IMG/VR virus record: IMGVR_UViG_2908572912_000003
DNA length: 38,820 bases
From: a virus
Lineage: Duplodnaviria > Heunggongvirae > Uroviricota > Caudoviricetes
Strand: one strand, 5' to 3'
Below are positions 266 through 24,586 of the stretch, piece by piece. The notes beneath the pieces are model-generated. The model had not been told where the DNA came from. It did not search any database and worked only from the letters and a program-made list of their open reading frames with translations. A program made the position numbers and the translations under genes. Each line of letters opens with the position of its first letter. Position 1 is the stretch's first letter.

Positions 266-273
<8 letters not shown>

Positions 274-3828: not shown

Positions 3829-3853
3829 GCCATGCATCGATAAGGTGCATGGC
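3829..3853 (+). terminator. Possible terminator hairpin after psu
   Basis: GCCATGCA...TGCATGGC inverted repeat followed by TTT; the U-tract is weak. Confidence 0.3.
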
Positions 3854-3956
3854 TTTGCATGCGTTTCCCTGCCTCATTTTCTGCAGACCGCGCCATTCCC
3901 GGCGCGGTCTGAGCGTGTCAGTGCAACTGCATTAAAACCGCCCCGCAAAGCGGGCG

Positions 3957-3975
3957 GGCGTGGCGGGGAGAGCAT
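3957..3975. other. P2/P4-type cohesive end (cos) site, variant
   Basis: GGCGTGGCGGGGAGAGCAT matches the recalled 19-nt P2/P4 cos GGCGAGGCGGGGAAAGCAC at 16 of 19 positions and lies downstream of psu as in P4. Confidence 0.4.
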
Positions 3976-4136
3976 TGCGCGCTGCCTGCAGAGCTAAATT
4001 ATTTTATTCATCCAATTTTAGTGATGGTTGGGACGGGCTGAATTTCGTGAATTTCCGAAAAAGAGTTAAAGTTTTCATCCCAATTAACATAAAACTATAT
4101 TGCGGATGTTTGCTTTAGCCCTTTCTCTCGTAAGAT

Positions 4137-6368: not shown

Positions 6369-6393
6369 TTTTTCGCATTCCTTTTATTGTTTT

Positions 6394-7596
6394 TTAATTA
6401 CTGGCTGATAGTGACTTAACGTAATTCCCCCACCAACTCATTAGCTCTATCCTTTGTTCTAAATAAATTGAACGATTATAAGCTCTACGTACTTCATTTT
6501 TATCTGTGTGCGCTAATGCTGACTCTATGACATCCGCATTCATCCCCGCTTCATTCATCGCTGTACTCGCAATAGACCTTAAACCATGAGCAACAAGCTT
6601 TCCACCATATCCAATTCTCTTCAGCGCAGCATTAGCCGTCTGGCTATTCATTGGTTGCTTTGGGTCATTCCTGCTCGGAAAAACGTGCTCTCGATTGGCA
6701 CTAATAGGTTTCATCACTTCGAGAATCTCTAATGCCTGAGTTGAGAGAGGAACTATGTGCTCACGTTTAGCCTTCATTCGTTCGGCCGGAATCGTCCATA
6801 GCTTTGTTTCGAGATCGATTTCAGCCCACCGAGCACCGGAGGCCTCAGAAGGGCGCACAAGGGTCAGGAGTTGCCATTCGATTAGACAGCGAGTCGGAAC
6901 AGACAGATTTGACATGACTAAAGAACGCATCAGCTTCGGCAATTCTTCTGGCCGCAACGTCGGCATGTTTTGCTTTTTGGGCTTCTCAAAGGCCATGCCA
7001 ACACCGGATGCTGGATTGGCATCAATCAGACCAGTGTTTACGGCATAAATCATGATTTCGTTAATACGCTGCACCAGTCGACGTACAGTCTCAAGCGCCC
7101 CACGTGCTTTTATTGGCTCAAGGGCTTCAACCAAAGTTCGGGCTTTGATTTGCTGAACGGGGATCTCACCGATGGCAGGGAATACATCTTTCTCCAGTGA
7201 ACGCCAAATGTCTTTTGCGTAATCAGGGGTAACGCTTTTGCTTTTGAGATGGAACCAGTTAGCGGCGACCGTTGAAAAAATACTGTCCAGAGCGATTTGC
7301 TGCTGTTCCTCTGCAACTTCGGCCTGAATTTGTGGGTCAATTCCGTTGGCTAACAAGGCAAGGTAATCCGCTCTTAACCCTCGGGCGTCAGCAAGTGAAA
7401 GGGCGGGGAAAGCACCTAGCCCCATCATTGTCCGCTGTTTTGTCGCCGGACGTTGATAACGGAAACGCCAGAGCTTTTTCCCGCTGGTTTTCACTATCAG
7501 GAAAAGGCCATCGCCATCATGCAGCGTTAGATCCTTCTCTAACGCTTTAGCGCGCAGAACTTCGGTGTTGGTCAGGGGGCGTGTTGTCCGTGCCAC
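6394..7596 (-). CDS. int: P4-type tyrosine integrase
   Basis: 400 aa; N-terminal arm-binding region (GLFLIVKTSGKKLWRFRYQ) and C-terminal catalytic region (HGLRSIAST...AHTD...RAYNR); GTG start with AAGGAG upstream; adjacent to the att core. Confidence 0.9.
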   Translation of the reverse strand: MARTTRPLTNTEVLRAKALEKDLTLHDGDGLFLIVKTSGKKLWRFRYQRPATKQRTMMGLGAFPALSLADARGLRADYLALLANGIDPQIQAEVAEEQQQIALDSIFSTVAANWFHLKSKSVTPDYAKDIWRSLEKDVFPAIGEIPVQQIKARTLVEALEPIKARGALETVRRLVQRINEIMIYAVNTGLIDANPASGVGMAFEKPKKQNMPTLRPEELPKLMRSLVMSNLSVPTRCLIEWQLLTLVRPSEASGARWAEIDLETKLWTIPAERMKAKREHIVPLSTQALEILEVMKPISANREHVFPSRNDPKQPMNSQTANAALKRIGYGGKLVAHGLRSIASTAMNEAGMNADVIESALAHTDKNEVRRAYNRSIYLEQRIELMSWWGNYVKSLSASN

Positions 7597-7618
7597 TGTG
7601 GTCGCTCCTTCATGAATT

Positions 7619-7666
7619 GGTATACGCTTTTAGGTATACATCCTACCGTATACCTAAACGTATACC
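7619..7666. promoter_or_regulatory. Cluster of GTATAC-core repeats in the integrase upstream region (possible Int or regulator binding sites)
   Basis: GGTATAC at 7619-7625 and 7633-7639, and CGTATACC at 7647-7654 and 7659-7666, within 70 bp upstream of the int start. Confidence 0.3.
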
Positions 7667-7712
7667 AATAATCACCGGATTTAGCCGGATGTTCTCGGAC
7701 AACGACAGACAC

Positions 7713-7744
7713 AAAAAAGCCCGCAGGGCTTATGCCGTGCGGGC
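7713..7744 (-). terminator. Rho-independent terminator following the tmRNA-like 3' end
   Basis: GCCCGCA...TGCGGGC hairpin (7719-7744) with an A-run on the plus strand (7713-7718), giving a U-tract on the minus strand just downstream of the att core. Confidence 0.5.
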
Positions 7745-7780
7745 TTTCTGTACTTCACTGGACGTATCCGGATCATGATT

Positions 7781-7808
7781 TGGTGGGCTGGCGGGAGTTG
7801 AACCCGCG
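7781..7808 (-). other. Attachment-site core: 3'-terminal 28 nt of a tmRNA (ssrA)-like gene, not a complete RNA gene
   Basis: Minus strand reads CGCGGGTTCAACTCCCGCCAGCCCACCA, nearly identical to the recalled E. coli ssrA 3' end (GCGGGTTCAACTCCCGCCAGCTCCACCA); the sequence 5' of it is AT-rich and not RNA-like. Confidence 0.55.
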
Positions 7809-7937: not shown

Positions 7938-8561
7938 ATGACAATACAGGAAATAATTCAGCAACGTAATATTCGTAGCTTGTTTCATTTTACACATAGC
8001 GATAATCTAACTTCCATTTTAGATAATGGCCTTATGTCTCGTTCAGAACTTGATAATGAAAATAATGAATATAATTATAATGATGAAGAAAGGATTGATG
8101 GTCATCCAGATGCGATTTGTTTGTCCGTAAGTTACCCTAATGCAAAAATGTTTTATAAATATAGATGTTTAAAGCCTGGGGACTGGGTTATATTAGAAAT
8201 CAATCCATCTGTTCTTTGGGCTAAGGATTGCGCTTTTTATCCTACCAACGCAGCTTCGAATAACGTTCGTTTTATAAATCTTGATTTGATGAAAGGAGCT
8301 GAGGCATTTAGTGCTTTGTTTTCAGAGAATGTTTTTGGGATTCAGAGAGATGTAAACCTTCCAAGTGAGTATACGACGGATGTTCAAGCTGAAATACTGG
8401 TATTTGAAAAAATTCCTCCCTCATATATTATAAGCACTTTTCACCCTAACAAAGAATCTGCTGAACATTTCAAGAGATTATATCCACAGACAATACAGAG
8501 ATCTTATGATAATCTTAATGCTAGAACATTTTATTCTCAGAGGCATTATTATTTAGGATAA
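7938..8561 (+). CDS. DarT-like DNA ADP-ribosyltransferase toxin (DUF4433-like)
   Basis: 207 aa, AT-rich; N-terminal LFHFTHSDNLTSILDNGLMS resembles the recalled DarT NAD-binding motif; candidate catalytic Glu in AEILVFE near residue 150-155; a partner ORF follows 4 bp downstream. Confidence 0.5.
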   Translation: MTIQEIIQQRNIRSLFHFTHSDNLTSILDNGLMSRSELDNENNEYNYNDEERIDGHPDAICLSVSYPNAKMFYKYRCLKPGDWVILEINPSVLWAKDCAFYPTNAASNNVRFINLDLMKGAEAFSALFSENVFGIQRDVNLPSEYTTDVQAEILVFEKIPPSYIISTFHPNKESAEHFKRLYPQTIQRSYDNLNARTFYSQRHYYLG

Positions 8562-8564
8562 GTT

Positions 8565-9254
8565 ATGGCCGTTAGACCTGTTTTCGTCCCTACAAACGCA
8601 GGGAACTTACTATCGATCACGAAGGATGTGGATTTTCCTTGGGCTCCTGGTATGTCTAAAACGCAAAAGCAAAAATCGATCAGGGCGTTACATACAGCAG
8701 CGAATGAGCAGGGATTGAACTCTTTGTTGGAAATTTCTAGTAAATCCGAAGATGCGCTGGGGGTAGCACTTAGTGCATTTAATCTAAGAATAAAGACGAA
8801 AAGACTTGGGAAAGAGTTTACAGTTGAATCTGCATTTCAAGCAAGTAAAGTATTTGAAATGGGAGGACCATATGTCGATATCTTAGATAAAAGCTCGATA
8901 GAAGCAAAAAAAGATATGAGATTAAAGGAATCTGGGGGATTAGTTAACTTCAAATTTTATAATACAATATGGCCCATTGTCCCCAGGACTGCTTTTTATG
9001 ATTGGTTATATTTGAGTGCGCTCAATCAAAACAAAAATCTAGCACTCCATCTATTAAATTTTGATGGATTTACTGATATTGAATTTAATCCAGCGAAATC
9101 TATTAATTGCCAAGCCAGAGCAGCTGCACTTTTTGTCTCTTTAGTAAGACGAAATATGTTAGATGATGTTTTATCTTCAAAGGATGGTTTTTTATCAAAA
9201 TTAGCATCTCATTATGGTGTTGAAAATTATTCTATTCAACATACATTGATATGA
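8565..9254 (+). CDS. Partner of the DarT-like gene; possible NADAR (YbiA-like) domain antitoxin
   Basis: 229 aa with AGGA ribosome-binding site; LSAFNLRIKTKRLGKEFTVESAFQASKVF resembles the YbiA/NADAR segment FSNFAAWPIKVDGKTWPTSEHYFQAQKF; no macrodomain motifs (NAAN/GGGV) found. Confidence 0.4.
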   Translation: MAVRPVFVPTNAGNLLSITKDVDFPWAPGMSKTQKQKSIRALHTAANEQGLNSLLEISSKSEDALGVALSAFNLRIKTKRLGKEFTVESAFQASKVFEMGGPYVDILDKSSIEAKKDMRLKESGGLVNFKFYNTIWPIVPRTAFYDWLYLSALNQNKNLALHLLNFDGFTDIEFNPAKSINCQARAAALFVSLVRRNMLDDVLSSKDGFLSKLASHYGVENYSIQHTLI

Positions 9255-9286: not shown

Positions 9287-10456
9287 TTAATATCTATTTT
9301 TTCTATTTAAAGATGTATTTCCATCATATTCTTTGAGGTATGAGCCATAATGTCTAAATAACATCTCTGGTCCTTTATGACCCATTTGAACCGCAAGCCA
9401 AAACAGGTTTGCTCCCCGGCTGATATGGCTGGTGGCGAATGTATGTCTGGTTTGATATGGGTTTCTGTAACGAATACCTGCTTTCCGCAATGTTGGCACC
9501 CATGCTTTTTTTCTAATTGCATCAGCACTTGCCCAAGGCTTATTGGTCTTTGGATCTTCAAAGACTGTAGCATCCTTCATGAATGTAAATGGCTTCTGAT
9601 TTATCAGCGCCAACATTGCATCTTCTGTCAGTTCAACTTTACGAGTACCGGCTTTTGTCTTTGTTCCTTTGATAACACCGACAACACTTGCGCTCTGGAC
9701 ATGGGCAGTTTTTCCAACAAAGTCGATATCACGCCATCGAAGGGCACATAATTCAGAACTACGCAGGCCTGTATGTATAGCGAACCGGAACAGATTCTCC
9801 CATTGTTTGTTTCCGGCTGCTGCTAGTAATGCATCAACTTCTGCTGGTGATAGCGGATCAACCACGTAGCTGCTTTCTGCTTCTGACTTATCACTTTGGT
9901 AGCGCGAAGCAGTTACCAACGATACGGGGTTAATTTGAAGTACCCCATCGGTTACGGCTTCATCAAGTGCTGACCGCAGGAAAGATAACTGGTTGCGAAT
10001 TGTTTTTAAGGTCGTTTTCTGGCTTTGAATCCACGCTTTCAGGATTGCTGGTGTTAATTCACTTGCAGGGCAAATGTGGAGTGAGGCTAACGCACTACGG
10101 CATTTTTTATAACCACCAATCGTAGATGGTGAAAGTTTTCTCGTTTCGCAGATTTCAAGGTATTCGTCCAGGTACATTTTTACCGTTTTGCCTGCAGCAG
10201 CATTACCAAAAATTTTCAAACGAGCAGAACGGGGAAAATATTCCGCATAAATGAATGTTCCCCTTTCGATCTTATTATGAATTTCGCCGAGTGTGCGCTC
10301 GGCGTATTTAATGTTCTTTGGTGTTACTTCCAGATTGGAAAGAGGCTCACGACATCTAACTCCTTTGTAGGTGAAAGTTATATTGATCGTTTCGCCCTGG
10401 CGGTGTTTCCTGATTGTTACGCCGCGCGGTAGTTTGAGCAGTTTTGTCTGGCCCAT
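9287..10456 (-). CDS. int: Prophage tyrosine integrase
   Basis: 389 aa; catalytic region motifs (HTGLRSSELCALRW, HTFATSHI, GHKGPEMLFRHYGSY). Confidence 0.9.
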   Translation of the reverse strand: MGQTKLLKLPRGVTIRKHRQGETINITFTYKGVRCREPLSNLEVTPKNIKYAERTLGEIHNKIERGTFIYAEYFPRSARLKIFGNAAAGKTVKMYLDEYLEICETRKLSPSTIGGYKKCRSALASLHICPASELTPAILKAWIQSQKTTLKTIRNQLSFLRSALDEAVTDGVLQINPVSLVTASRYQSDKSEAESSYVVDPLSPAEVDALLAAAGNKQWENLFRFAIHTGLRSSELCALRWRDIDFVGKTAHVQSASVVGVIKGTKTKAGTRKVELTEDAMLALINQKPFTFMKDATVFEDPKTNKPWASADAIRKKAWVPTLRKAGIRYRNPYQTRHTFATSHISRGANLFWLAVQMGHKGPEMLFRHYGSYLKEYDGNTSLNRKNRY

Positions 10457-10623
10457 TTTGCAACCTCACTAAGATCAATCCACCTCTCCTTAACGCCTTC
10501 AACCTTTAAAACCTGAACACCTTCACGCCAAACACCGCGCTGTACACGTTTGTTTATTGCTTCAGGAGTTTCGCCAGTTTCTTTGCAATAAGTTGAGATT
10601 GGAACACAATCGAGGTTCAGCAT
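10417..10623 (-). CDS. xis: Excisionase-like protein
   Basis: 68-aa ORF immediately upstream of and overlapping the integrase; ATG at 10623 with GGAG upstream; a GTG at 10635 is an alternative start. Confidence 0.45.
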   Translation of the reverse strand: MLNLDCVPISTYCKETGETPEAINKRVQRGVWREGVQVLKVEGVKERWIDLSEVAKWARQNCSNYRAA

Positions 10624-10682
10624 ATGTTTCTCCACTTAGCCCGCTGCACACGGGCAGTAATATCAAATTCCAGTCCTGATAA

Positions 10683-10898
10683 TTAATTTTGTTCCCTGGT
10701 TGCTACCTGTTTTATTGGCCTGATGCTGTCCAGTAGCAGACGGCGACGCATGTTAGGTGCCCCCCAACGGTAACCAGTCTTTTTGTCGTAGGATTCACAA
10801 CGTCCGGCAACCCAGGACGTTTCAGTGGAATGTAATTTCATCCGCTTTTCACCGTCTCGGGTGATAACAATTCCTGTATGAGTTTTTATCACGCTCAT
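10683..10898 (-). CDS. Hypothetical phage early protein
   Basis: 71-aa ORF; ATG overlaps the stop of the upstream gene (ATGA). Confidence 0.45.
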   Translation of the reverse strand: MSVIKTHTGIVITRDGEKRMKLHSTETSWVAGRCESYDKKTGYRWGAPNMRRRLLLDSIRPIKQVATREQN

Positions 10899-11257
10899 TT
10901 CTTAGTCTCTGGTGCTTTCGGCATTACTGCCCAGTGAGTGATATTGACGTTTTCAAGGTCCCCGACCTGAAATGTCCACTGCCATTCTCCGGTTTCTTTT
11001 TGCCCCCAGGTGTACCAGAGAGAACGCCAGCCAATTAGCCAGCCTTCTCCGTTAGCATCGAATAACAAAACACTTTCATTTGCTGGTGGCAGTTCAGTTG
11101 ACACTGGTATTGCTTTGTTTTCCTGTGCTGCACATTTAGCTTCAAGCGCATCGAATTTGCGCACCAGGTATTCAGCATCTGTTTCATTCACTTTCAGATC
11201 TCGCGGTACACATCTCCCACGAAGAAACCCTTCCATTTCGAAAACATTCATGCACAT
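10895..11257 (-). CDS. Hypothetical phage protein with Trp-rich C-terminus (DUF551-like)
   Basis: 120-aa ORF in an operonic chain with its neighbours; C-terminal GWRSLWYTWGQKETGEWQW segment. Confidence 0.45.
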   Translation of the reverse strand: MCMNVFEMEGFLRGRCVPRDLKVNETDAEYLVRKFDALEAKCAAQENKAIPVSTELPPANESVLLFDANGEGWLIGWRSLWYTWGQKETGEWQWTFQVGDLENVNITHWAVMPKAPETKK

Positions 11258-11784
11258 TTGCGTAACTCCGATAACTCGTTAAAACGTTCCATAAACATCC
11301 CGTAGGCATGGCCCGGTGCCAGTGGAATCACGTTGAACATCTCTGTTGCGGGGATGCCTTCCAGTACAGGCCAGAAAGAGCCATCATCAAGCCCGAGATC
11401 GCGGCGTTCGGTTGCCAGCATGATGAGATCGGCATATTTCACAGGCGTGCTCATAACCGGGGGTAACCCGTATTTCTCACGGATTACGGCGTCTATTTTT
11501 TCTTCCATCCGTTTATAGTCAGGAAGAAGGCGTTTCAGTGGCGCGGGGATGTCCTGACAATAAGCTTCTGTTGCATCATGCATTAACGCTTCAAAAGCAA
11601 ATTCCTGCGGCACCAACTGGCTGCAAAGAACCGCATGTTGGGCGACGCTGTAGAAGTGCGAAAGATGACCGGCAAAGCGACAGATATTTGAAAGGGAAAC
11701 CGCGATATCGTTAATATCGATGTCGTCTTTATTTATCCTGTCATAATAAAAATGCTTCCCGGAAAAAGTTTTAATAAATGACAT
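11248..11784 (-). CDS. HD-domain phosphohydrolase (YfbR-like 5'-deoxynucleotidase family)
   Basis: His...HD metal-binding pattern (SVAQHAVL...ALMHDATEAY); ATG at 11784 with GGAG upstream (the longer ORF from 11811 starts with GTG). Confidence 0.6.
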   Translation of the reverse strand: MSFIKTFSGKHFYYDRINKDDIDINDIAVSLSNICRFAGHLSHFYSVAQHAVLCSQLVPQEFAFEALMHDATEAYCQDIPAPLKRLLPDYKRMEEKIDAVIREKYGLPPVMSTPVKYADLIMLATERRDLGLDDGSFWPVLEGIPATEMFNVIPLAPGHAYGMFMERFNELSELRKCA

Positions 11785-11911
11785 TTTGTTCTCCACGTAT
11801 ATGCGCTGCACCGCGCTGAATTCTGGTAAAAAGAATCCCTCACCATCCGGCGATTATTGAGTAAATTACGTTTCCATAAATGCCCCCGCAGGGGCATTTG
11901 CAGTAATGAAA

Positions 11912-12736
11912 TCAGGCGGTGAAAGTACCAATAAAGGTTTCTACTTTGCTGTCCTTGAATTTCTCAACAAGCAGATCACGAAATTCGTTAGCCATTTCTT
12001 CCTGCACCGCCTCCAGCTGAATAATGCGCAGAACCAGTACAGGACGATCGCCAGTGATAATACTGAGGCGTAATTTAAACGGACGTTCTTTCAGACCTTC
12101 AAACGGAACGCATTTAAATTCAAATGCCACTGGCATAATGTCTTTGGTCTTCGCTTCGACAGACTCCATCAGGGAGCGTTTGCCGCTGAAGTCATTATCT
12201 TCAAAATCAGCGGTCTGGTTTGCTTCAATCGTGATTTTACGGACAGCCGCAGCCGCTTTTGTTGCCTGAATAGCGTCACCATTAGCATCAAAGCCCACAA
12301 GATAGTCGGCCCAGTCTTCAATCCATTCTGCCAGTGACTTCTGGGAGTTACGCTCGCCGTTAACAGACAACAGAGCAGAGAACGGTGCTGTCTTTTTCAG
12401 TTTGAGTGTGGCGGTGTTATCTGCGTGACCTGGTTCATCAATAGTACCCAGGTTAAGCACACTGACGGCACGCATATTATCAGCATCGATAAAGCAGCGG
12501 GTGCCTTCATCTGCAAGATCTTTAGAATAACGGGTAAAGTCATCGATGCTGGCAGTGGAAAGCGCACCACGGAAACGGAAGCGATTTAAATTAAATTTTT
12601 CCAGATCATGAATGCGGAAATTCTCAGGCAATGCCACAGCATCGGCACCAATCTTACTGATAATTTCATTAACACCCTGAGCAGAAATAAGGGCATGGAT
12701 TTGATTAATTGAGGTTGCGTCTAAGTTCTGAGACAT
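11912..12736 (-). CDS. Phage early protein, YfdQ-like (DUF2303)
   Basis: 274-aa ORF, ATG with GAGGA upstream; sequence recalled as similar to CPS-53 yfdQ-type prophage proteins. Confidence 0.5.
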
Positions 12737-12801
12737 AATAAGTCCTCACTATATAAAGATATTCAGTGATGAGATAAATAATCAGTTAATTAAAAACGAT
12801 A

Positions 12802-13164
12802 TTAACGACCTGCTGCGCGGAGTTTTCCGTCAGGTTCACCGGCAAGAGTCAGTAACTGTCCCTGGTCTTCCTGCAGAATAGTCAGGCGACCACCGCGATT
12901 GACATACATCGGCGTTTCGGTGGTGTCTTCTTCGGAAATTTTCCCGCGGTTAGTCGGGCGAACATATGAGAGTTTGTGTTTGATTTTCACACGGTTCTCA
13001 TCAAATGGTTCGATTTCCAGGTTGAGTGAGACCTTACCTTTGGTTTTCGTGTTCATCACACCGGAAGCGACTTCACTGAGAACTGCGCCGATTTTGGTTT
13101 CAAATACGCCGCCGTCCAGCTCCCCGATAAATGCCTGCACGTCAGTACTGCGTTCGCTAGCCAT
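12802..13164 (-). CDS. Hypothetical phage early protein
   Basis: 120-aa ORF starting MASERSTDVQ... with GAGGAG upstream; the longer upstream extension to 13482 has junk-like composition. Confidence 0.5.
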   Translation of the reverse strand: MASERSTDVQAFIGELDGGVFETKIGAVLSEVASGVMNTKTKGKVSLNLEIEPFDENRVKIKHKLSYVRPTNRGKISEEDTTETPMYVNRGGRLTILQEDQGQLLTLAGEPDGKLRAAGR

Positions 13165-13632
13165 TTTGCTGCTCCTCATCATATCGACCCTGCAAGGCCG
13201 ATTAGTTTCTCCACAAAACAGAGAAGAACACCTGCGGTGGCAGCCGCCCGGATGGATTGGGTTATGAGCCCGTCGTCCGGTGATGCTCTTCTCTGTTTTG
13301 TAAAAAGGACGGTACCAGCCGGAAGCAAGGGTACAAACTGGTACCGCCAGGACTACACACAGCATAAAGTTGTGGTGCCGGGTGCCTCCCGGTGCCTGGC
13401 GAAGGTTGCACACCAGGCGGGTGGGTATCCACAGAAGGTCGACTGTCAGCCTCAACCTTAACCCGCGTGCGCTGAGCCGCATTCACCACAACGCTAAGGA
13501 TTCTCTCTGGTTGAAAATACTTAGCTGTTATGTGCCTGCTTTTAGCCACATCAGGCGAGGTGGACCTAGTTATTCCCCAACAACAAGGATTCGGTTAATC
13601 TGGTTATCCCCAACAACGCAAAAGGAAAAGAA

Positions 13633-14067
13633 ATGTCCGGTAATATCTATACGCTGTACAAATCCCACTGTGAAAATGTTGGAAAGTATCGGGGCATTGA
13701 AATCAGTGGGGTAGTGTCATCAGCCGAAATAAGCAAAGTTGAATCAAGGGCAACATTACTTACTCTTTTGGACCTTGTCTTACATGAGCACCGGAAGAAA
13801 TTCGGCACTCCCTATAATCAGTTGAATGGGAAAAAGGCTCTGGTTCACCTTATTCTGATGAAGCATCACTGGATGCCAAAACAGATTAATGAGATGAAAT
13901 TTGATGAACTTCTTCTTTCAATTCAGGATGAACTCACACTTGATAAAATAAGCGTAACCGCCCAGAAATTTTTAGATTATCGAGACTGGAGATCACAAAT
14001 TCATCACTTTGATGATTTTGACGAAAATGAATGGGATCCTAATTTGTCTGCACAATATCTAAAGTAA
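13633..14067 (+). CDS. Hypothetical acidic protein (144 aa), opposite strand to the early operon
   Basis: AT-rich ORF with AAGGAAAAG ribosome-binding site; ends 5 bp before the IS1 left end; no recognisable motifs. Confidence 0.5.
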   Translation: MSGNIYTLYKSHCENVGKYRGIEISGVVSSAEISKVESRATLLTLLDLVLHEHRKKFGTPYNQLNGKKALVHLILMKHHWMPKQINEMKFDELLLSIQDELTLDKISVTAQKFLDYRDWRSQIHHFDDFDENEWDPNLSAQYLK

Positions 14068-14127
14068 CATCCGGTGATGCTGCCAACTTACTGATTTAGT
14101 GTATGATGGTGTTTTTGAGGTGCTCCA

Positions 14128-14403
14128 GTGGCTTCTGTTTCTATCAGCTGTCCCTCCTGTTCAGCTACTGACGGGGTGGTGCGTAACGGCAAAAGCACCG
14201 CCGGACATCAGCGCTATCTCTGCTCTCACTGCCGTAAAACATGGCAACTGCAGTTCACTTACACCGCTTCTCAACCCGGTACGCACCAGAAAATCATTGA
14301 TATGGCCATGAATGGCGTTGGATGCCGGGCAACTGCCCGCATTATGGGCGTTGGCCTCAACACGATTTTACGTCACTTAAAAAACTCAGGCCGCAGTCGG
14401 TAA
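14128..14403 (+). CDS. insA: IS1 InsA
   Basis: [43 protein letters not shown]... matches recalled IS1 InsA. Confidence 0.85.
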
Positions 14404-14825
14404 CCTCGCGCATACAGCCGGGCAGTGACGTCATCGTCTGCGCGGAAATGGACGAACAGTGGGGATACGTCGGGGCTAAATCGCGCCAGCGCTGGCTGTT
14501 TTACGCGTATGACAGGCTCCGGAAGACGGTTGTTGCGCACGTATTCGGTGAACGCACTATGGCGACGCTGGGGCGTCTTATGAGCCTGCTGTCACCCTTT
14601 GACGTGGTGATATGGATGACGGATGGCTGGCCGCTGTATGAATCCCGCCTGAAGGGAAAGCTGCACGTAATCAGTAAGCGATATACGCAGCGAATTGAGC
14701 GGCATAACCTGAATCTGAGGCAGCACCTGGCACGGCTGGGACGGAAGTCGCTGTCGTTCTCAAAATCGGTGGAGCTGCATGACAAAGTCATCGGGCATTA
14801 TCTGAACATAAAACACTATCAATAA
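14322..14825 (+). CDS. insB: IS1 InsB reading frame (expressed as the InsAB' transposase by -1 frameshift)
   Basis: ...[36 protein letters not shown]... matches recalled IS1 InsB. Confidence 0.8.
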
Positions 14826-14840
14826 GTTGGAGTCATTACC

Positions 14841-15011
14841 GGCAAAACCATTCCGGGTAACGATGATGTGGTGAAGCCCGTCAAAGAGCAGGCGGAAAAC
14901 AAAATCGATGGTGCAGTTGCGCTGATTATGGCGGTTGGCAGAGCCATGCTGTACGAGAAAGAAGACACGCTGTCTGACCACATTGAGTCCTATGGGATCC
15001 GCTCGCTTTAA
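14841..15011 (+). pseudogene. 3' remnant of a terminase large-subunit-like gene, truncated by IS1
   Basis: Frame is open from the first base after IS1 (…[24 protein letters not shown]…, 56 codons) and ends just before the portal gene; no start codon or N-terminal portion present. Confidence 0.4.
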
Positions 15012-15022
15012 CTGAGGTAATT

Positions 15023-15205
15023 ATGATCATGCTGATTCTCGCGCCTCTGGTGGGCGTGCTGGGGGCGCTTTTGCTGGCGTATGGTGCCTGGCTGATTTAT
15101 CCCCCGGCGGGGTTTGTTGTTGCCGGGGCGTTGTGCCTGTTCTGGTCGTGGCTGGTGGCGCGATATCTCGACCGTACACAGTCGTCTGTCGGCGGAGGTA
15201 AATAG
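15023..15205 (+). CDS. Small hydrophobic (membrane) protein
   Basis: 60-aa ORF with GAGGT ribosome-binding site; predominantly hydrophobic; abuts the portal start. Confidence 0.4.
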
Positions 15206-16446
15206 TGTTCTTTTCGGGATTATTTCAACGAAAAAGTGACGCACCGGTGACCACGCCAGCAGAGCTGGCGGATGCTATCGGGTTGTCCTACGACACCTAT
15301 ACCGGAAAGCAGATCAGCAGCCAGCGGGCCATGCGACTGACGGCGGTTTTTTCCTGTGTCAGGGTGCTGGCAGAGTCGGTCGGGATGTTGCCCTGCAATC
15401 TGTATCACCTGAACGGCAACCTGAAACAGAGAGCCACCGGCGAACGTCTGCATAAGCTGATCTCCACGCATCCCAATGGCTATATGACGCCGCAGGAGTT
15501 CTGGGAGCTGGTGGTCACCTGTCTGTGCCTGCGGGGCAACTTTTACGCCTACAAAGTGAAAGCATTTGGCGAAGTGGCTGAACTGCTGCCCGTCGATCCC
15601 GGTTGTGTGGTACCGAAGCTTAACAGTCGCTGGGAGCCGGTCTATCAGGTCACATTCCCGGACGGCTCCACGGATGTACTGAGCCAGGAAGATATCTGGC
15701 ATGTGCGCACGCTGACGCTGGACGGTCTGGTGGGACTGAATCCCATCGCCTATGCCCGCGAGGCAATATCGCTGGCAGCTGCGACCGAAGAGCACGGGGC
15801 CAGACTGTTCAGCAATGGTGCGGTGACGTCCGGTGTGTTGCGTACAGAGCAGACGCTGTCGGATCAGGCTTATGAGCGCCTGAAGAAAGATTTTGAGGAG
15901 CGTCACACCGGGCTTGGCAATGCTCACCGCCCGATGATCCTTGAGATGGGGCTGGACTGGAAGTCGATGGCGCTGAACGCCGAGGACAGCCAGTTCCTGG
16001 AAACCCGCAAGTTTCAGCTTGAAGAAATCTGTCGTCTGTTCCGGGTGCCATTGCACATGGTGCAGAACACCGATCGCGCCACCTTCAACAATATCGAAGA
16101 GCTGGGGCTGGGATTTATCAACTATTCACTGGTGCCGTATCTGACCCGCATCGAACAGCGGATCAACACCGGACTGGTACGAAAAAGTAAGCAGGGCGTT
16201 TATTACGCCAAATTTAACGCCGGGGCGTTACTGCGCGGGGATATGAAGTCCCGTTTTGAAGCCTACGCCACCGGGATCAACTGGGGAATTTACTCTCCCA
16301 ATGACTGCCGCGATCTGGAAGATATGAATCCGCGTCCCGGTGGTGATGTCTATCTCACACCGATGAACATGACCACGAAACCCTCCGATGGCAGTAAAGC
16401 CGGTAAGCAGAAGGATAACGCCAATGCAGACGAAACAACGTCTTGA
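15205..16446 (+). CDS. Phage portal protein (HK97 family)
   Basis: 413 aa; GTG start with GGAGG upstream; position upstream of the protease and major capsid genes. Confidence 0.8.
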   Translation: MFFSGLFQRKSDAPVTTPAELADAIGLSYDTYTGKQISSQRAMRLTAVFSCVRVLAESVGMLPCNLYHLNGNLKQRATGERLHKLISTHPNGYMTPQEFWELVVTCLCLRGNFYAYKVKAFGEVAELLPVDPGCVVPKLNSRWEPVYQVTFPDGSTDVLSQEDIWHVRTLTLDGLVGLNPIAYAREAISLAAATEEHGARLFSNGAVTSGVLRTEQTLSDQAYERLKKDFEERHTGLGNAHRPMILEMGLDWKSMALNAEDSQFLETRKFQLEEICRLFRVPLHMVQNTDRATFNNIEELGLGFINYSLVPYLTRIEQRINTGLVRKSKQGVYYAKFNAGALLRGDMKSRFEAYATGINWGIYSPNDCRDLEDMNPRPGGDVYLTPMNMTTKPSDGSKAGKQKDNANADETTS

Positions 16447-17074
16447 TGTACCGCTGAGTCTGAAGTCTGTCAGTGACTCCGGTGAGTTTGAAGGGTATGG
16501 CTCCGTCTTTGGTGTAAAGGACAGCCACGATGATGTGGTGATGTCCGGGGCATTTGCCGCCTCCCTGCGGGCGTGGAGTGACAGAAAAGCGTTACCTGCG
16601 CTGCTCTGGCAGCACCGCATGGATGAGCCCATCGGTGTTTACACCGAAATGAAGGAAGACGATGTCGGGCTTTACGTCAGGGGGCGGTTGCTCATTGATG
16701 ATGATCCCCTGGCAAAACGCGCACATGCACACATGAAGGCCGGTTCGTTAACCGGCCTTTCTATTGGGTACGTCCTGAAAGACTGGGAGTACGACCGGAC
16801 GAAAGAAGCCTTTCTGCTGAAAGAAATCGACCTCTGGGAAGTCAGTCTGGTGACGTTCCCGTCTAACGACGAGGCGCGGATCAGCGACGTCAAGAACGCG
16901 CTGGCCCGCGGGGAAATCCCCGAACAGAAAAAAATCGAAAGGGTCCTGCGTGATGTCGGACTCTCCCGTACCCAGGCCAAAGCATTCATGGCCGGGGGCT
17001 ATGGCGCACTGTCCCTGCGCGACGCTGAGGATGTGAGCTCTGCACTGAATGCACTGAAAAATCTGAACTTCTAA
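16424..17074 (+). CDS. Prohead protease (HK97 family)
   Basis: ATG at 16424 with AAGGA upstream, overlapping the portal 3' end; sits between portal and major capsid genes. Confidence 0.75.
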   Translation: MQTKQRLDVPLSLKSVSDSGEFEGYGSVFGVKDSHDDVVMSGAFAASLRAWSDRKALPALLWQHRMDEPIGVYTEMKEDDVGLYVRGRLLIDDDPLAKRAHAHMKAGSLTGLSIGYVLKDWEYDRTKEAFLLKEIDLWEVSLVTFPSNDEARISDVKNALARGEIPEQKKIERVLRDVGLSRTQAKAFMAGGYGALSLRDAEDVSSALNALKNLNF

Positions 17075-17088
17075 TCAGGAGAAATACG

Positions 17089-18294
17089 ATGGCGGTAGAT
17101 ATTAAAGATGTCGAACAGGTCGCGCAGGAGCTGCAGCAGAAGTTTGACGACTTCAAAGCAAAGAACGACAAGCGCGTGGATGCGATTGAGCAGGAAAAAA
17201 GCAAGCTTGCCGGGCAGGTGGAAACCCTGAACGGAAAACTCAGCGAGCTGGAAAACCTCAAAAGCGATCTTGAAAAAGAGCTGCTTGAGCTGAAACGTCC
17301 GGCAGGTGGTGCGCAAAATAAACTGACCACCGAGCATAAAGAAGCGTTTGTGGGCTTCCTGCGTAAAGGCCGTGAAGATGGTCTGCGCGATCTGGAGCGC
17401 AAGGCATTACAGGTGGGCACCGATGAAGACGGCGGCTATGCCGTGCCGGAAGCGCTGGATCGCAACATTCTGACCTTGCTGAAAGATGAAGTGGTGATGC
17501 GTCAGGAAGCCACGGTGATCACCATTGGTGGTTCCGACTACAAAAAACTGGTGAATCTGGGCGGCACGGCTTCCGGATGGGTTGGCGAGACTGACGCGCG
17601 CTCCCAGACTGCCACCTCAAAACTGGGCCTGATTGAACCTTTCATGGGGGAAATCTACGGTAACCCGCAGGCCACCCAGAAAATGCTGGATGATGCCTTT
17701 TTCAACGTGGAAGCATGGATCAACAGCGAGCTGGCAACCGAATTTGCCGAACAGGAAGAAATTGCCTTTACCACCGGCGATGGTACCAAGAAGCCGAAAG
17801 GGTTCCTGGCGTATGAATCCACTGATGAAACCGATAAGGTCCGGGCGTTCGGCAAACTTCAGCATATTGTATCCGGCGAAGCGACGGCGGTGACCGCAGA
17901 CGCCATTATCAAACTGATTTACACGCTGCGTAAGGCACACCGCATCGGCGCGAAGTTCATGATGAACAACAACAGCCTGTTTGCCATCCGTCTGCTTAAA
18001 GACAGCGAGGGTAACTATCTGTGGCGTCCGGGGCTGGAACTGGGGCAGCCGTCCTCTCTGGCGGGTTACGGTATCGCTGAAAACGAACAGATGCCGGATA
18101 TCGCCGCTGATGCGAAAGCCATTGCATTTGGTAACTTCAAACGGGGTTACACCATCGTTGACCGTATCGGCACCCGCATTCTGCGTGACCCGTACACCAA
18201 TAAACCGTTTGTCGGTTTTTATACCACCAAGCGCACCGGCGGGATGCTGGTCGATTCGCAGGCCATCAAACTGCTGAAGATTGCAGCGGCGTAA
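17089..18294 (+). CDS. Major capsid protein (HK97 fold) with N-terminal coiled-coil delta domain
   Basis: 401 aa; coiled-coil N-terminus (ELQQKFDDFKAKNDKRVDAIEQEK...) followed by the capsid domain; AGGAG ribosome-binding site. Confidence 0.85.
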   Translation: MAVDIKDVEQVAQELQQKFDDFKAKNDKRVDAIEQEKSKLAGQVETLNGKLSELENLKSDLEKELLELKRPAGGAQNKLTTEHKEAFVGFLRKGREDGLRDLERKALQVGTDEDGGYAVPEALDRNILTLLKDEVVMRQEATVITIGGSDYKKLVNLGGTASGWVGETDARSQTATSKLGLIEPFMGEIYGNPQATQKMLDDAFFNVEAWINSELATEFAEQEEIAFTTGDGTKKPKGFLAYESTDETDKVRAFGKLQHIVSGEATAVTADAIIKLIYTLRKAHRIGAKFMMNNNSLFAIRLLKDSEGNYLWRPGLELGQPSSLAGYGIAENEQMPDIAADAKAIAFGNFKRGYTIVDRIGTRILRDPYTNKPFVGFYTTKRTGGMLVDSQAIKLLKIAAA

Positions 18295-18301
18295 TCACTC
18301 A

Positions 18302-18322
18302 GGGGCGCGGAACCGCGCCCCC
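18302..18322 (+). terminator. GC-rich hairpin after the major capsid gene (possible attenuator)
   Basis: GGGGCGCGG aa CCGCGCCCC perfect palindrome directly after the capsid stop; the following T-tract is weak. Confidence 0.3.
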
Positions 18323-18343
18323 TGTTCTGACGGGTGAAGAATC

Positions 18344-18544
18344 ATGATCCTGAAACAAGATCTGAAATGGTCACCGGACGGTATGCGTGTTGAGGTCATT
18401 CGGGCCGGTGAGTATGACGACGGGGCGCTTCCTGCCCGGGTGCAGGAGATTGCACTTCAGGCCGGGTTAGCAGAGCGCGGAATCAGTGCAAAAAGCAGTA
18501 AAGCGGCAAAAGAGAAAAAAGCCACGACCAGTAAAGAGGGCTGA
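18344..18544 (+). CDS. Hypothetical small head-region protein
   Basis: 66-aa ORF between the capsid and connector genes. Confidence 0.4.
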   Translation: MILKQDLKWSPDGMRVEVIRAGEYDDGALPARVQEIALQAGLAERGISAKSSKAAKEKKATTSKEG

Positions 18545-18546
18545 GT

Positions 18547-18870
18547 ATGCTTCTGACAATGGAAGAGATTAAAGCCCAACTCCGGCTGGATGAGGATTTC
18601 GATGCTGATGACCGCCATCTGCAACTGCTGGCCTGTGCGGCACAAAAGCGGACGGAAACGTATCTGAACCGGAAGCTCTATGCACCGGATGAAACCATTC
18701 CGGACAGCGATCCGGACGGGCTGCACCTGCCGGATGATATTCGTCTGGGGATGCTGATGCTTATCAGCCATTTTTACGAAAACCGCTCGTCGGTTACGGA
18801 AGTGGAGAAACTCGACATGCCGCAGAGTTTTGGCTGGCTTGTCGGCCCGTACAGGTACTTTCCGCAATGA
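18547..18870 (+). CDS. Head-tail connector protein (gp6-like)
   Basis: 107-aa ORF with GAGGG ribosome-binding site in the expected position of the morphogenesis cluster. Confidence 0.55.
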   Translation: MLLTMEEIKAQLRLDEDFDADDRHLQLLACAAQKRTETYLNRKLYAPDETIPDSDPDGLHLPDDIRLGMLMLISHFYENRSSVTEVEKLDMPQSFGWLVGPYRYFPQ

Positions 18871-19277
18871 AAATTCGTCAGGCGCAGACCAGCGCAACCT
18901 ACATTCTGCCGGACCCCGGTGAACTGAATAAACGCGTCCTGATCCGCCTGCGGGTGGATATGCCCGCGGATAACTTTGGCGTGGAGCCTCAATACCCGGT
19001 TACGTTCCGGACATGGGCGAAGGTTATCCAGACCAGTGCCACCACCTGGCAGGAAACCGCGCAGACCGGGGACGCCATCACCCATTACATCACCATTCGT
19101 TACCGCCGGGGGATCACCGCTGATTATGAGGTGGTCTGCGGTGACAGTGTGTACCGGGTGAAACGTCAGCGCGATCTGAACGGGGCGCGGCGCTTTCTGC
19201 TGCTGGAGTGTACGGAGCTGGGCGAATGTAGGCAGAGTCACGGAGGCAACAATGACGACTTCCTTTTTGCACGTTGA
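18867..19277 (+). CDS. Head closure / head-tail adaptor protein
   Basis: 136-aa ORF, start overlapping the upstream stop; assignment by position. Confidence 0.45.
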   Translation: MKIRQAQTSATYILPDPGELNKRVLIRLRVDMPADNFGVEPQYPVTFRTWAKVIQTSATTWQETAQTGDAITHYITIRYRRGITADYEVVCGDSVYRVKRQRDLNGARRFLLLECTELGECRQSHGGNNDDFLFAR

Positions 19278-19758
19278 TTTTCAGCAGCCCGCGGAGATGC
19301 GCTTTAACCGCGCCCGTGTCCGGCGGGCGTTTGTCACGATTGGTCAGCGTCATATGCGTGATGCCCGTCGGCTGGTGATGCGCCGTGCGCGGTCGGCACC
19401 GGGTGAAAACCCCGGTTATCAGACCGGACGCCTGGCTCGTTCAATTGGTTACATGGTACCCAGAGCCAGTAAACATCGCCCTGGTTTTATGGCACGTATA
19501 GCCCCTAACCAGCGTAATGGAGAGGGAAACCGCCGTATCACCGGTGATTTTTATCCGGCTTTTTTGTTCTATGGCGTGAGGCGAGGGGCAAAGCGTCGTC
19601 GCAGCCATCATCGTGGTGCATCCGGTGGCAGCGGCTGGCGACTGGCTCCACGTAATAACTTCATGGTGGAAACTCTTGAAAAGAACCGCAGCTGGACACG
19701 CTATTTTCTGGCGCGGGAATTGCGTAAATCACTGAAGCCGGAGCGACGACACAGATGA
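19252..19758 (+). CDS. HK97 gp10-like neck / tail completion protein
   Basis: 168-aa basic protein with GGAGG ribosome-binding site; assignment by position. Confidence 0.45.
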   Translation: MTTSFLHVDFQQPAEMRFNRARVRRAFVTIGQRHMRDARRLVMRRARSAPGENPGYQTGRLARSIGYMVPRASKHRPGFMARIAPNQRNGEGNRRITGDFYPAFLFYGVRRGAKRRRSHHRGASGGSGWRLAPRNNFMVETLEKNRSWTRYFLARELRKSLKPERRHR

Positions 19759-20315
19759 AACTGACGCCTGTTATTGCTGCACTGCGTGCCCGCTGTCCGT
19801 ATTTTGAAAACCGGGTTGCAGGCGCGGCCCAGTTCAAAAATCTGCCGGAGGTCGGAAAGCTGAAACTCCCGGCGGCATATGTTGTACCGGGTGATGATTC
19901 TCCGGGAGAAAACAAAAGCCAGACCGACTACTGGCAGGAGCTGAAAGAGGGTTTCTCCGTGGTTGTCATACTGAGTAACGGGCGTGATGAGCGCGGTCAG
20001 TTTGCCTCGTATGATGTGGTGGACGATGTCCGGCAGATGCTCTTTAAGGCTCTGCTGGGCTGGAACCCGGAGGCGTGCGGTAACCCGATTACCTATGACG
20101 GCGGCACGCTGCTGGATCTGAATCGTCATGAGCTGATTTATCAGTTCGATTTTTCGGTCATCAGCGAGCTAACCGAAGACGATACCCGCCAGCAGGATGA
20201 GCTGAACAGTCTGGATGAACTGCGAACGCTGGCGATTGATGTTGATTATCTCGATCCCGGTAACGGGCCTGACGGCGATATCGAACATCACACCGAAATA
20301 CCCCTTCCTTCCTGA
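19755..20315 (+). CDS. Phage tail-proximal structural protein (tail terminator-like)
   Basis: 186-aa ORF, overlapping start, immediately upstream of the sheath gene. Confidence 0.4.
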   Translation: MKLTPVIAALRARCPYFENRVAGAAQFKNLPEVGKLKLPAAYVVPGDDSPGENKSQTDYWQELKEGFSVVVILSNGRDERGQFASYDVVDDVRQMLFKALLGWNPEACGNPITYDGGTLLDLNRHELIYQFDFSVISELTEDDTRQQDELNSLDELRTLAIDVDYLDPGNGPDGDIEHHTEIPLPS

Positions 20316-20323
20316 GGATCCTC

Positions 20324-20494
20324 ATGTTTGTTAAACCTGTTAAAGGGCGGTCAGTGCCTGACCCTGCCCGCGGCGACCTTTTGCCCGCCGAAGGGCGAAA
20401 TGTTGACGAGAACAACTACTGGCTGCGCCGTGAAGCAGCGGGTGATATCCGGCGCGTGAATAAAAAGGTGAATACCGATGACGATAAGCTTTAA
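20324..20494 (+). CDS. Small conserved phage protein (DUF2635-like), not in the supplied ORF track
   Basis: 56-codon ORF (MFVKPVKGRSVPDPARGDLLPAEGRNVDENNYW...) found by hand; its 3' end overlaps the sheath start. Confidence 0.35.
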   Translation: MFVKPVKGRSVPDPARGDLLPAEGRNVDENNYWLRREAAGDIRRVNKKVNTDDDKL

Positions 20495-21974
20495 CACCAT
20501 TCCGTCGAATACGCTGGTTCCGTTGTTTTATGCGGAAATGGATAACTCGGCGGCGAATACTGCACAGGACAGCGGAGCATCGCTGCTGATTGGTCATGCC
20601 AATAACGGTGCAGAGATTGTTGCCAACAGTCTGGTACTGATGCCGTCGGCAGACTATGCACGCCAGATTTGTGGTGCGGGAAGTCAGCTGGCGCGTATGG
20701 TCGAGGCTTATCGCCAGACTGACCCGTTTGGCGAGCTGTATGTGATTGCCGTTCCTGAATCCACCGGCGCGGCGGCAACGGTTACGCTGACGGTGACCGG
20801 GGCGGCAACCGAAACCGGCACGGTGAATGTGTATGTGGGACGTACCCGCGTGCAGGCACCGGTGACTAACGGCGATAACGTCACGATGATTGCCAGCAGT
20901 ATCCAGGATGCCATCAATGCCGTTCCGACCCTGCCGTTTACGGCTTCATCTTCGGCAGGCGTGGTCACACTGACCGCGCGTCATAAGGGGCTTTGCGGGA
21001 ATGAAATTCCTGTCAGCCTCAATTACTACGGCTTTGGTGGGGGCGAAGTGCTGCCAGCGGGCGTACAGATTGCCGTGGCGACGGGTACCGCCGGAACGGG
21101 TGCTCCGGTTCTCACCGGCGCGGTGGCTGCAATGGCGGATGAGCCGTTTGATTATATCGGCCTGCCGTTCAACGACACGGCCTCCGTTAACACGCTGGTG
21201 ACCGAGATGAACGATACCAGCGGTCGCTGGAGCTATGCGCGTCAGCTGTATGGTCATGTGTATACGGCAAAGATCGGCACGCTGTCAGAACTGGTGACCG
21301 CAGGTGACCAGTTTAACCAGCAGCACATTACCCTGGCGGGGTACGAAAAAGAGACCCAGACGCCTGCCGACGAGCTGGCGGCAAGCCGTACCGCCCGCGC
21401 GGCGGTGTTTATCCGCAACGATCCGGCACGTCCCACGCAGACCGGTGAGCTGGTGGGTATGCTGCCTGCGCCGAAGGGGAAACGGTTCACGATGACCGAA
21501 CAACAGACCCTGCTGTCTCATGGCGTGGCAACGGCGTATGTCGAAAGCGGGGTACTGCGCATTCAGCGTGATGTCACCACGTACAGGAAAAACGCTTACG
21601 GGGTTGCGGATAACAGCTACCTCGACAGCGAGACTCTGCATACCAGCGCGTATGTACTGCGCAAACTGAAATCCGTCATTACCAGTAAGTACGGGCGTCA
21701 CAAGCTTGCCAGTGACGGTACCCGCTTTGGGCCCGGTCAGGCGATTGTCACCCCGGCGATGATCAAAGGGGAACTGCTGGCAACCTACCGTCAGCTCGAG
21801 CGTGCGGGGATCGTGGAAAACTACGAACTGTTCAAGCAGTACCTGGTTGTGGAGCGTGATGCCAGCGATCCGAACCGCCTGAACACGCTGTTCCCGCCTG
21901 ACTATGTTAACCAGTTGCGTGTCTTTGCCGTGGTTAACCAGTTCCGTCTTCAGTATTCAGAGGAGTCTGCATAA
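20478..21974 (+). CDS. Contractile tail sheath protein (Mu gpL-like)
   Basis: 498 aa, Gly/Thr/Ala-rich; followed by tube, chaperone and tape measure genes in the Mu-like myovirus order. Confidence 0.8.
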   Translation: MTISFNTIPSNTLVPLFYAEMDNSAANTAQDSGASLLIGHANNGAEIVANSLVLMPSADYARQICGAGSQLARMVEAYRQTDPFGELYVIAVPESTGAAATVTLTVTGAATETGTVNVYVGRTRVQAPVTNGDNVTMIASSIQDAINAVPTLPFTASSSAGVVTLTARHKGLCGNEIPVSLNYYGFGGGEVLPAGVQIAVATGTAGTGAPVLTGAVAAMADEPFDYIGLPFNDTASVNTLVTEMNDTSGRWSYARQLYGHVYTAKIGTLSELVTAGDQFNQQHITLAGYEKETQTPADELAASRTARAAVFIRNDPARPTQTGELVGMLPAPKGKRFTMTEQQTLLSHGVATAYVESGVLRIQRDVTTYRKNAYGVADNSYLDSETLHTSAYVLRKLKSVITSKYGRHKLASDGTRFGPGQAIVTPAMIKGELLATYRQLERAGIVENYELFKQYLVVERDASDPNRLNTLFPPDYVNQLRVFAVVNQFRLQYSEESA

Positions 21975-22330
21975 TGGCCCGTATCGGGGGAACCTGTTAT
22001 TTCAAAATTGACGGTCAGCAGCTATCGCTGACCGGCGGCATTGAGGTGCCCATGAACAGGACGGTCAATGATGACATCATCGGCCTGGACGGTTCAGTGG
22101 ACCGCAAGGAAACTCACCGTGCGCCTTATGTCAAAGGGACCTTCAAGGTGCCGAAGAATTTTCCGGTGAGCAAAATCACCTCATCTGATGAGATGACCAT
22201 CACTGCCGAGCTGGCGAACGGTCAGGTCTATGTACTGTCGTCTGCCTGGCTGCACGGCGAAGCGAACCATAATGCCGAAGAAGGCACGGTCGATCTTGAG
22301 TTCCACGGTGAAGAAGGGGATTACCAGTAA
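21974..22330 (+). CDS. Tail tube protein
   Basis: 118-aa ORF directly after the sheath gene. Confidence 0.7.
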   Translation: MARIGGTCYFKIDGQQLSLTGGIEVPMNRTVNDDIIGLDGSVDRKETHRAPYVKGTFKVPKNFPVSKITSSDEMTITAELANGQVYVLSSAWLHGEANHNAEEGTVDLEFHGEEGDYQ

Positions 22331-22599
22331 TGAAAGAGCTTGAGTTAAAGAAACCGATTACCGCTCATGGCGAGACACTCTCCGTACTGGAGTTTGATGA
22401 GCCCACCGGGAAAGATGTCCGCGAGCTGGGGTATCCCTACCAGATGAATCAGGATGAGTCCGTCAGACTTCTGGCGCATGTGGTATCGAAATACATTGTG
22501 CGGCTGGCGAAAGTGCCGCAAAGCTCTGTCGACCAGATGTCTCCGGCAGACTTGAATGCAGCGGCGTGGCTTGTGGCTGGTTTTTTCCTCCAGGCCTGA
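22330..22599 (+). CDS. Tail assembly chaperone, with a probable -1 frameshifted extension to 22748
   Basis: 89-aa ORF upstream of the tape measure gene; T_TTT_TTC slippery heptamer near 22580-22587; the -1 frame stays open to 22748. Confidence 0.6.
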   Translation: MKELELKKPITAHGETLSVLEFDEPTGKDVRELGYPYQMNQDESVRLLAHVVSKYIVRLAKVPQSSVDQMSPADLNAAAWLVAGFFLQA

Positions 22600-22740
22600 C
22601 GGCTGAATACCTCACTGATCGCTTCTTTGACTGCGCCAGCTACTGGCGCATTAATCCCTTCGAATTGCTGAATATGCCGATCAGTGAAATTCCCTTGCTG
22701 GTCAGTCAGGCAAACAGGATAGAGCAGGAGAAACGCACAC

Positions 22741-24582: not shown

Positions 24583-24586
24583 TACC

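Follow-up and report, generated by a model that had tools for sequence, protein, structure and literature searches.

The window, by which we mean the whole stretch of 38,820 nucleotides of DNA analysed here, holds a P4-like satellite with sid, delta, psu and integrase genes (1-7800) and, integrated beside it at ssrA, a prophage whose right-end cargo genes adjoin ssrA. The prophage is of the temperate SfIV/SfII/SfV/phiP27 type, with an HK97-like head, a contractile tail and cos packaging. The main references for its gene content are the Shigella phage SfIV (NC_022749) and two intact prophages at the same ssrA locus, those of E. coli FREC5 (NZ_CP180702) and EC1722-1 (NZ_CP081192), both complete genomes. 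From left to right, the features of the prophage are as follows.

9287-10456, minus strand: integrase of the prophage, at its left end; Pfam Arm-DNA-bind_2 and Phage_integrase; 98.4% amino-acid identity to the FREC5 integrase (ssrA)
10420-13164, minus strand: early-left genes (two small ORFs, a yfdS-like gene, yfdR, yfdQ/DUF2303 and yfdP), full length, 93-100% amino-acid identity to FREC5
13633-14067, plus strand: ORF for an ECs1072-family phage-associated protein of 144 aa, so annotated in E. coli relatives; equivalent to SfIV gp36 (27691-28125) and the last gene kept before the junction
14064-14072: left 9-bp flank GTAACATCC, equal to SfIV 28122-28130
14073-14840, plus strand: complete IS1 of exactly 768 bp, with left inverted repeat (14073-14095), insA (14128-14403), A6C site (14377), insB' frame (14322-14825) and right inverted repeat (14818-14840)
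14841-14849: right 9-bp flank GGCAAAACC, aligning with SfIV 2122-2130, with the same bases in FREC5 and EC1722-1
14841-15011, plus strand: 3' remnant of the large terminase gene (terL), codons 522-577 plus the stop, that is, 56 sense codons aligning with TerL residues 522-577 of 577
15023-24582, plus strand: intact head and proximal tail genes (ymfR, portal, protease, capsid, connector, head closure, terminator, sheath, tube, assembly chaperone and tape measure), each aligning with its FREC5 homologue as one block (97-100% amino-acid identity)
26702-32671, plus strand: intact distal tail and baseplate genes, matching FREC5
33348-34415: Acyl_transf_3 acyltransferase, right-end cargo
34967-35791: LEM-3-like GIY-YIG protein, right-end cargo
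36102-37577: C-5 cytosine methyltransferase, right-end cargo
37612-38820: EcoRII-type restriction endonuclease, right-end cargo, reaching the end of the window

Several other elements of the neighbourhood deserve mention in their own right. In the variable region of the satellite, between psu and the integrase gene, an ORF of 743 aa (4137-6368, minus strand) without a match in Pfam or PADLOC is a candidate for an uncharacterised defence gene; EC1722-1 carries an nSTAND NTPase at this position, and relatives carry defence-type genes there. Between the satellite and prophage integrases lie a DarT ssDNA ADP-ribosyltransferase (7938-8561, plus strand) and, directly after it, a DarT1-associated NADAR antitoxin (8565-9254, plus strand; Pfam E=1e-89), in place of which EC1722-1 has a RloB/AAA ATPase pair (position of window 7938-9254). 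Within the tail region, an insert at 24570-26698 sits between the tape-measure and DNA-circularisation genes. It contains IS421 of the IS4 family (about 24585-25927), with a 372-aa DDE_Tnp_1 transposase, perfect inverted repeats of 25 bp and the direct repeat GGGCTGATA(CCC), and beside it an ORF of about 225-245 aa (25953-26690) that belongs to no Pfam family. This 2.1-kb insert is absent from FREC5 and EC1722-1 and 99.9-100% identical in five other E. coli genomes, one of the five matches being in a prophage at argW; sharing as patchy as this implies module exchange between prophages.

The element at 14073-14840 has the features by which IS1 is recognised, namely a length of about 768 bp, imperfect 23-bp terminal repeats, an insA/insB' pair with an A6C frameshift site, and a DDE domain. 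Its left inverted repeat, GGTGATGCTGCCAACTTACTGAT, begins at 14073 and is found a single time in the window, where chance would predict no occurrence. The right inverted repeat, in complement reading, is GGTAATGACTCCAACTTATTGAT and lies at the exact end of the element, whose right terminus (...GTTGGAGTCATTACC) ends at 14840. The two 23-bp termini agree at 18 of 23 positions, as they do in canonical IS1. InsA matches the Pfam families Zn_ribbon_InsA and HTH_Tnp_IS1, and the InsB frame matches DDE_Tnp_IS1 (E=2e-78); the A6C frameshift motif at 14377 is TTAAAAAACTC, and the insB' frame is at -1 relative to insA. This is the only IS1 copy in the window. It is 99.2-99.6% identical to copies in SfIV and in E. 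coli chromosomes, which carry the RefSeq label IS1A family. The alignments span 768 bp at 99.2-99.3% for the copies of SfIV and E. coli S1-INA-02-B, and 769-770 bp at 98.0-99.6% for those of strains 3359 and E4.

Simple insertion of IS1 generates a flanking target-site duplication of 9 bp, or rarely of 8-14 bp. At the window IS1, the left and right 9-bp flanks, GTAACATCC and GGCAAAACC, are alike at five of nine positions. A hidden duplication was sought and rejected: no direct repeat of 7-11 bp was found around the element, moving either IS1 end by up to 3 bp yielded no flank pair with at least 6 of 9 matches, and the only k-mer of at least 5 bases shared by the 30-nt flanks was GTAAC, in non-adjacent positions. 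The same test recovers the perfect 9-bp duplication CCAATTGCT at the IS1 of phage SfIV and the direct repeat of the window's own IS421, so the absence at the window IS1 is real. A duplication marks simple insertion and does not belong to the definition of the IS1 element; its absence is evidence of a rearrangement. The first-pass annotation had noted intact IS1 ends next to unlike 9-bp flanks and had taken them to indicate deletion or rearrangement by IS1 and not simple insertion. That reading is borne out by the canonical ends, the absence of a duplication and the position of the two flanks 13,749 bp apart in SfIV, and the direct repeats of 8-9 bp that realignment of the ends might have brought to light fell within the 7-11 bp search and were not found.

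Two further readings of the junction were discarded. Microhomology at the left junction was suggested by a BLAST alignment that ran 6 nt into IS1, where SfIV has TGTGAT and IS1 GGTGAT, an incidental match at five of six positions that does not shift the junction. Secondly, IS1 might have landed in a deletion junction that already existed. Such a later insertion at an old junction would have left a 9-bp duplication, and since none is present, IS1 took part in the deletion.

On the left side, the window runs collinear with SfIV as far as position 28130, with 99.0% nucleotide identity over SfIV 24962-28130, and the stop codon of the ECs1072-family gene lies 5 nt before IS1. The protein encoded by this gene matches no family in Pfam or PADLOC. 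The module to which it belongs (window 13564-14072, compared with 13402-13900 of locus extract L016) occurs in SfIV and in some of the E. coli prophages, but the otherwise closest relatives, FREC5 and EC1722-1, have a different small gene in its place, which is ordinary mosaicism. Because these two prophages differ at the module, the exact left end point can be mapped only on references of the SfIV type. The AT content is 63-66% at the left site and 43-52% at the right (terL) site, compared with 49.7% for the whole phage.

On the right side, the sequence from 14841 onward is 98.2% identical to SfIV over 3,460 bp and 95-98% identical to SfII, SfI, ST64B and several E. coli phages. It begins at SfIV 2122, the first base of codon 522 of the 577 in terL (SfIV 559-2292), and the remnant aligns alike with the TerL C-termini of SfIV, FREC5 and EC1722-1. 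What stands to the right of IS1 is therefore, as had been proposed, the last 56 codons of a terminase gene. In Pfam, the remnant covers only positions 254-284 of the 286 in the TerL_nuclease profile, scoring 21.7 bits, below the 24-bit cut-off. The TerL_ATPase domain is gone from the window; intact relatives have both TerL_ATPase and TerL_nuclease in a protein of 577 aa. The sole internal start codon in the remnant, a GTG at 14868, would give a product of 47 aa. A fusion of InsB with the terminase tail was ruled out, because the stop codon of insB' (TAA, 14823-14825) is in the frame of the remnant, so that no fusion protein results.

Alignment with intact relatives, the check that had been recommended, maps the missing interval to SfIV 28131-39758 followed, in prophage order, by 1-2121, in total 13,749 bp; in the same-locus prophages FREC5 and EC1722-1, the two flanks are about 14 kb apart. 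In SfIV, this block contains the UmuD/LexA-like repressor gene cI, cro, a cII-like gene, replication genes, the Q antiterminator gene, the genes for holin, endolysin, spanins and an HNH protein, cos, terS, and the part of terL for TerL residues 1-521. The cos site of SfIV is at the end of the linear map, adjoining terS (PMC3851460), which places it inside the lost block. The gene classes previously listed as absent between the early genes and the portal gene are thus those of the mapped block: immunity, replication, lysis, cos, terS and most of TerL.

These genes have not moved to another part of the window. When 18 SfIV proteins from the lost block were compared with the whole window by tblastn, 17 had no match and TerL matched through its C-terminal tail only. 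Likewise, the 21 FREC5 genes that follow the early-left module, up to and including terS, had no match anywhere in the window, and FREC5 TerL gave a C-terminal match only, with residues 517-577 in the alignment. No terminase, terS, lysis, replication or repressor gene was found elsewhere in the 38,820 nucleotides; in particular, a complete terminase gene, the presence of which would have contradicted the earlier reading, is absent from the window. Both flanks keep the parental order and strand, at SfIV 28130 and 2122, both on the plus strand, and likewise in FREC5 and EC1722-1. A single inversion or translocation was ruled out on these grounds, as the flanks have the order and strand of every intact relative, and the event was a deletion.

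The remainder of the prophage is well preserved. In a gene-by-gene comparison in which 54 FREC5 proteins were searched against the window, the genes outside the lost block were all present (32/32), in single alignment blocks, essentially at full length and with 93-100% amino-acid identity. Within 15023-24582, all genes are full length relative to FREC5 except that for the tape measure, which aligns over 610 of 611 residues. At the nucleotide level, FREC5 is collinear with window 9305-13563 (97.1% identity), 14840-24569 (97.9% over 9,730 bp) and 26699-38820 (98.2%), and its unmatched stretch between the first two of these segments amounts to about 14.0 kb. The intactness of all other genes points to a single, clean deletion, and the loss of one block with no other detectable decay suggests that the event was probably recent.

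The prophage shares its gene order with SfIV, SfII, SfI, SfV, ST64B and phiP27 and with the intact ssrA prophages of FREC5 and EC1722-1, and with this group it has 95-99% nucleotide identity and full collinearity over the early-left and portal-to-baseplate genes. It differs from the group in lacking the whole block from cI to TerL codon 521. It differs from SfIV further in its integrase and attachment site, which in SfIV are of the thrW type, and in carrying an acyltransferase and an EcoRII-type restriction-modification system where SfIV has gtrABC. With FREC5, in turn, it has the ssrA locus and the cargo genes in common, as well as the integrase (98.4% amino-acid identity). The cryptic prophages e14 and CPS-53 (KpLE1) of E. 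coli K-12, which we take to be decayed members of the same broad phage group, are far more eroded than the window prophage with its one clean deletion and otherwise intact genes. The names ymfL, ymfQ, ymfR, yfdP to yfdT and intS in RefSeq annotation are the names of K-12 remnants applied to homologues.

The window prophage is not the only one of its kind to have lost DNA next to an IS1. In E. coli 3359 (NZ_CP103739), S1-INA-02-B (NZ_CP145662) and E4 (NZ_CP104516), the early-left prophage region likewise carries an IS1, oriented as in the window, at the following places.

4980-5747 of locus extract L003: IS1 of strain 3359, about 100 bp to the right of the window junction site
4856-5623 of locus extract L004: IS1 of strain S1-INA-02-B, 218 bp to the left of the junction site, within the ECs1072-family gene
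4002-4769 of locus extract L002: IS1 of strain E4, lying between yfdP and the HD-hydrolase (yfdR-like) gene; the yfdQ stretch, window 11738-12784, is lost

None of these three IS1 copies has a target-site duplication, and all adjoin missing phage DNA. In 3359 and S1-INA-02-B, the deletion reaches the tail-fibre genes, unlike that of the window, whereas E4 loses only yfdQ. Since both the insertion points and the deletion ends differ, the events are independent of one another. Together with the window, four independent cases of IS1 plus deletion have been seen, three of them within about 220 bp of each other.

The exact junction of the window, by comparison, was found in none of the collections searched. 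A search of 5,426 E. coli genomes did not detect it, and its exact strings are absent from GTDB species representative genomes and from metagenome contigs; among complete E. coli genomes, none has one place that covers at least 80% of window 13000-16000. A look-up of the portal protein returned intact relatives only. That of the 47-aa ORF in the terL tail led to contigs in which the context is different (another remnant, a frameshifted assembly and adapter-led reads), and the IS1 junction of the window was in none of them.

The prophage has lost about 13.7 kb as one contiguous block, from 5 nt past the ECs1072-family gene to codon 521 of terL, and the junction is occupied exactly by a complete IS1. 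The end state that is common to the three deletion routes considered below, a deletion marked by IS1 in a defective prophage, can be regarded as established with little room for doubt. As to how it arose, the likeliest route, which we would hold at about even confidence, is the classical IS1 "adjacent deletion". IS1 would first have inserted at one of the two sites. In a round of intramolecular replicative transposition, the transposase InsAB' would then have linked one end of the element to another target on that DNA molecule, and the intervening DNA would have left as a circle with one copy of IS1, to be lost subsequently. The chromosome would have kept one IS1 with new DNA on one side, and the 9-bp flanks would no longer match. 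IS1 has a regional preference for AT-rich DNA. The AT-rich left site is weakly favoured as the starting point, because this would require the fewest events, because it is AT-rich and because IS1 has been seen there repeatedly in other strains. Sister strains lend no support to this order of events or to the site of origin, since no presumed precursor, IS1 with a 9-bp duplication at either site, turned up among 5,426 E. coli genomes.

IS1-promoted adjacent deletions were reportedly given their classical description by Reif and Saedler in 1975, in the gal region of E. coli, and Turlan and Chandler are said to have described intramolecular replicative deletions by IS1 in 1995. The window shares the traits of such deletions: the insertion sequence survives whole at the junction, one of its ends is the exact starting point of the deletion, the DNA beyond is collinear with that of the undeleted parent, and no duplication surrounds the retained copy. 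There is no substantive difference, apart from the fact that the substrate is a prophage and that the event is inferred by comparison and not observed.

A realistic alternative, though one that we consider less probable, is that IS1 inserted twice in the same orientation, once after the ECs1072-family gene and once at terL codon 521/522, and that RecA-dependent recombination between the 768-bp copies then removed the interval together with one IS1, so that the remaining hybrid IS1 kept the left flank of one copy and the right flank of the other. This predicts exactly what is seen, namely an intact IS1, mismatched flanks and collinear flanking DNA, and indeed one-step transposition and recombination between two direct copies have an identical end-product sequence, by which the window cannot separate them. 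IS1 is also abundant in E. coli, where the median genome has about 10-11 matching places, and the related phage SfIV carries an IS1 with its duplication inside the interval (35186-35953). In E. coli RR1, IS1-mediated recombination removed about 20 kb (PMC5379014). However, recombination between two copies calls for two independent insertions and a third event, compared with one insertion and one event for an adjacent deletion. Moreover, synthetic junction queries of 109 nt that represented the precursor, IS1 with a 9-bp duplication at either site, detected neither simple insertion among the 5,426 E. coli genomes. The right site, in addition, is not AT-rich and is from established knowledge a less typical primary target of IS1.

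It is improbable that the IS1 started from within the interval, for instance from its SfIV place between Q and the lysis genes, and produced adjacent deletions in two successive steps, the leftward one ending at SfIV 28130 and the rightward one at SfIV 2122. Adjacent deletions may, as is well established, start from either end of the element, and the SfIV copy at 35186-35953 has the same orientation and lies within the deleted interval. Yet this course needs two deletion events, no IS1 was found in the interval of FREC5 or EC1722-1, and the window IS1 resembles unrelated chromosomal copies (99.3-99.6%) at least as closely as the SfIV copy (99.2%).

Finally, the collapse of two IS1 copies during assembly, or the transfer of the interval to another place by an IS1-mediated rearrangement, is very improbable: the 768-bp repeat does exceed short-read length, IS1 is multicopy in the species and the view is that of a 38.8-kb window, but both flanks lie on one contiguous sequence in the right order and orientation, the window crosses the IS421 repeat cleanly with its duplication included, similar deletions anchored by IS1 occur in this prophage region in independent complete E. 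coli genomes, and even a relocated segment would leave the prophage without cos, terS and an intact terL in cis.

Whether the block was removed by adjacent deletion, the favoured route, or otherwise, the consequences for the prophage can be read from the modules that remain. Of those present in an inducible SfIV-like phage, immunity, replication, antitermination, lysis, cos and terS are absent, while head, tail, integrase and early-left modules are present and collinear. The loss of cI and cro, the replication genes, Q, the lysis genes, cos, terS, the TerL ATPase and most of the nuclease implies a defective prophage. Judged from its gene content, it should be unable to replicate, to switch on its late genes, to package DNA or to lyse its host, and it would thus persist as a locked-in remnant which retains its integrase, early-left, head, tail and cargo genes in intact form. 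With int and xis retained, excision might still take place. For annotation, this means that the prophage is to be labelled defective, the terL tail of 47-56 codons a pseudogene fragment, and the IS1 a deletion junction. It also means that the acyltransferase, EcoRII-type restriction-modification and GIY-YIG genes, along with the neighbouring DarT-NADAR pair, would be fixed in the chromosome and could not leave it with the phage.

The phenomenon itself is already known, both IS1-promoted deletion and IS-driven prophage decay being textbook matters. What is mildly interesting is that independent deletions anchored by IS1 recur near one place in related prophages. On the evidence of the genomes compared here, IS1-anchored deletion is evidently a common fate in the SfIV-like phage family. 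A more specific proposal can be offered only tentatively, and we consider it rather unlikely: that the AT-rich boundary between the early-left and repressor regions of SfIV/CPS-53-like prophages may be a recurrent landing site for IS1, from which deletions repeatedly extend rightward. If this were true, IS1 would act as a systematic and lineage-independent means of disarming SfIV-like phages in E. coli and Shigella, with their cargo being kept.
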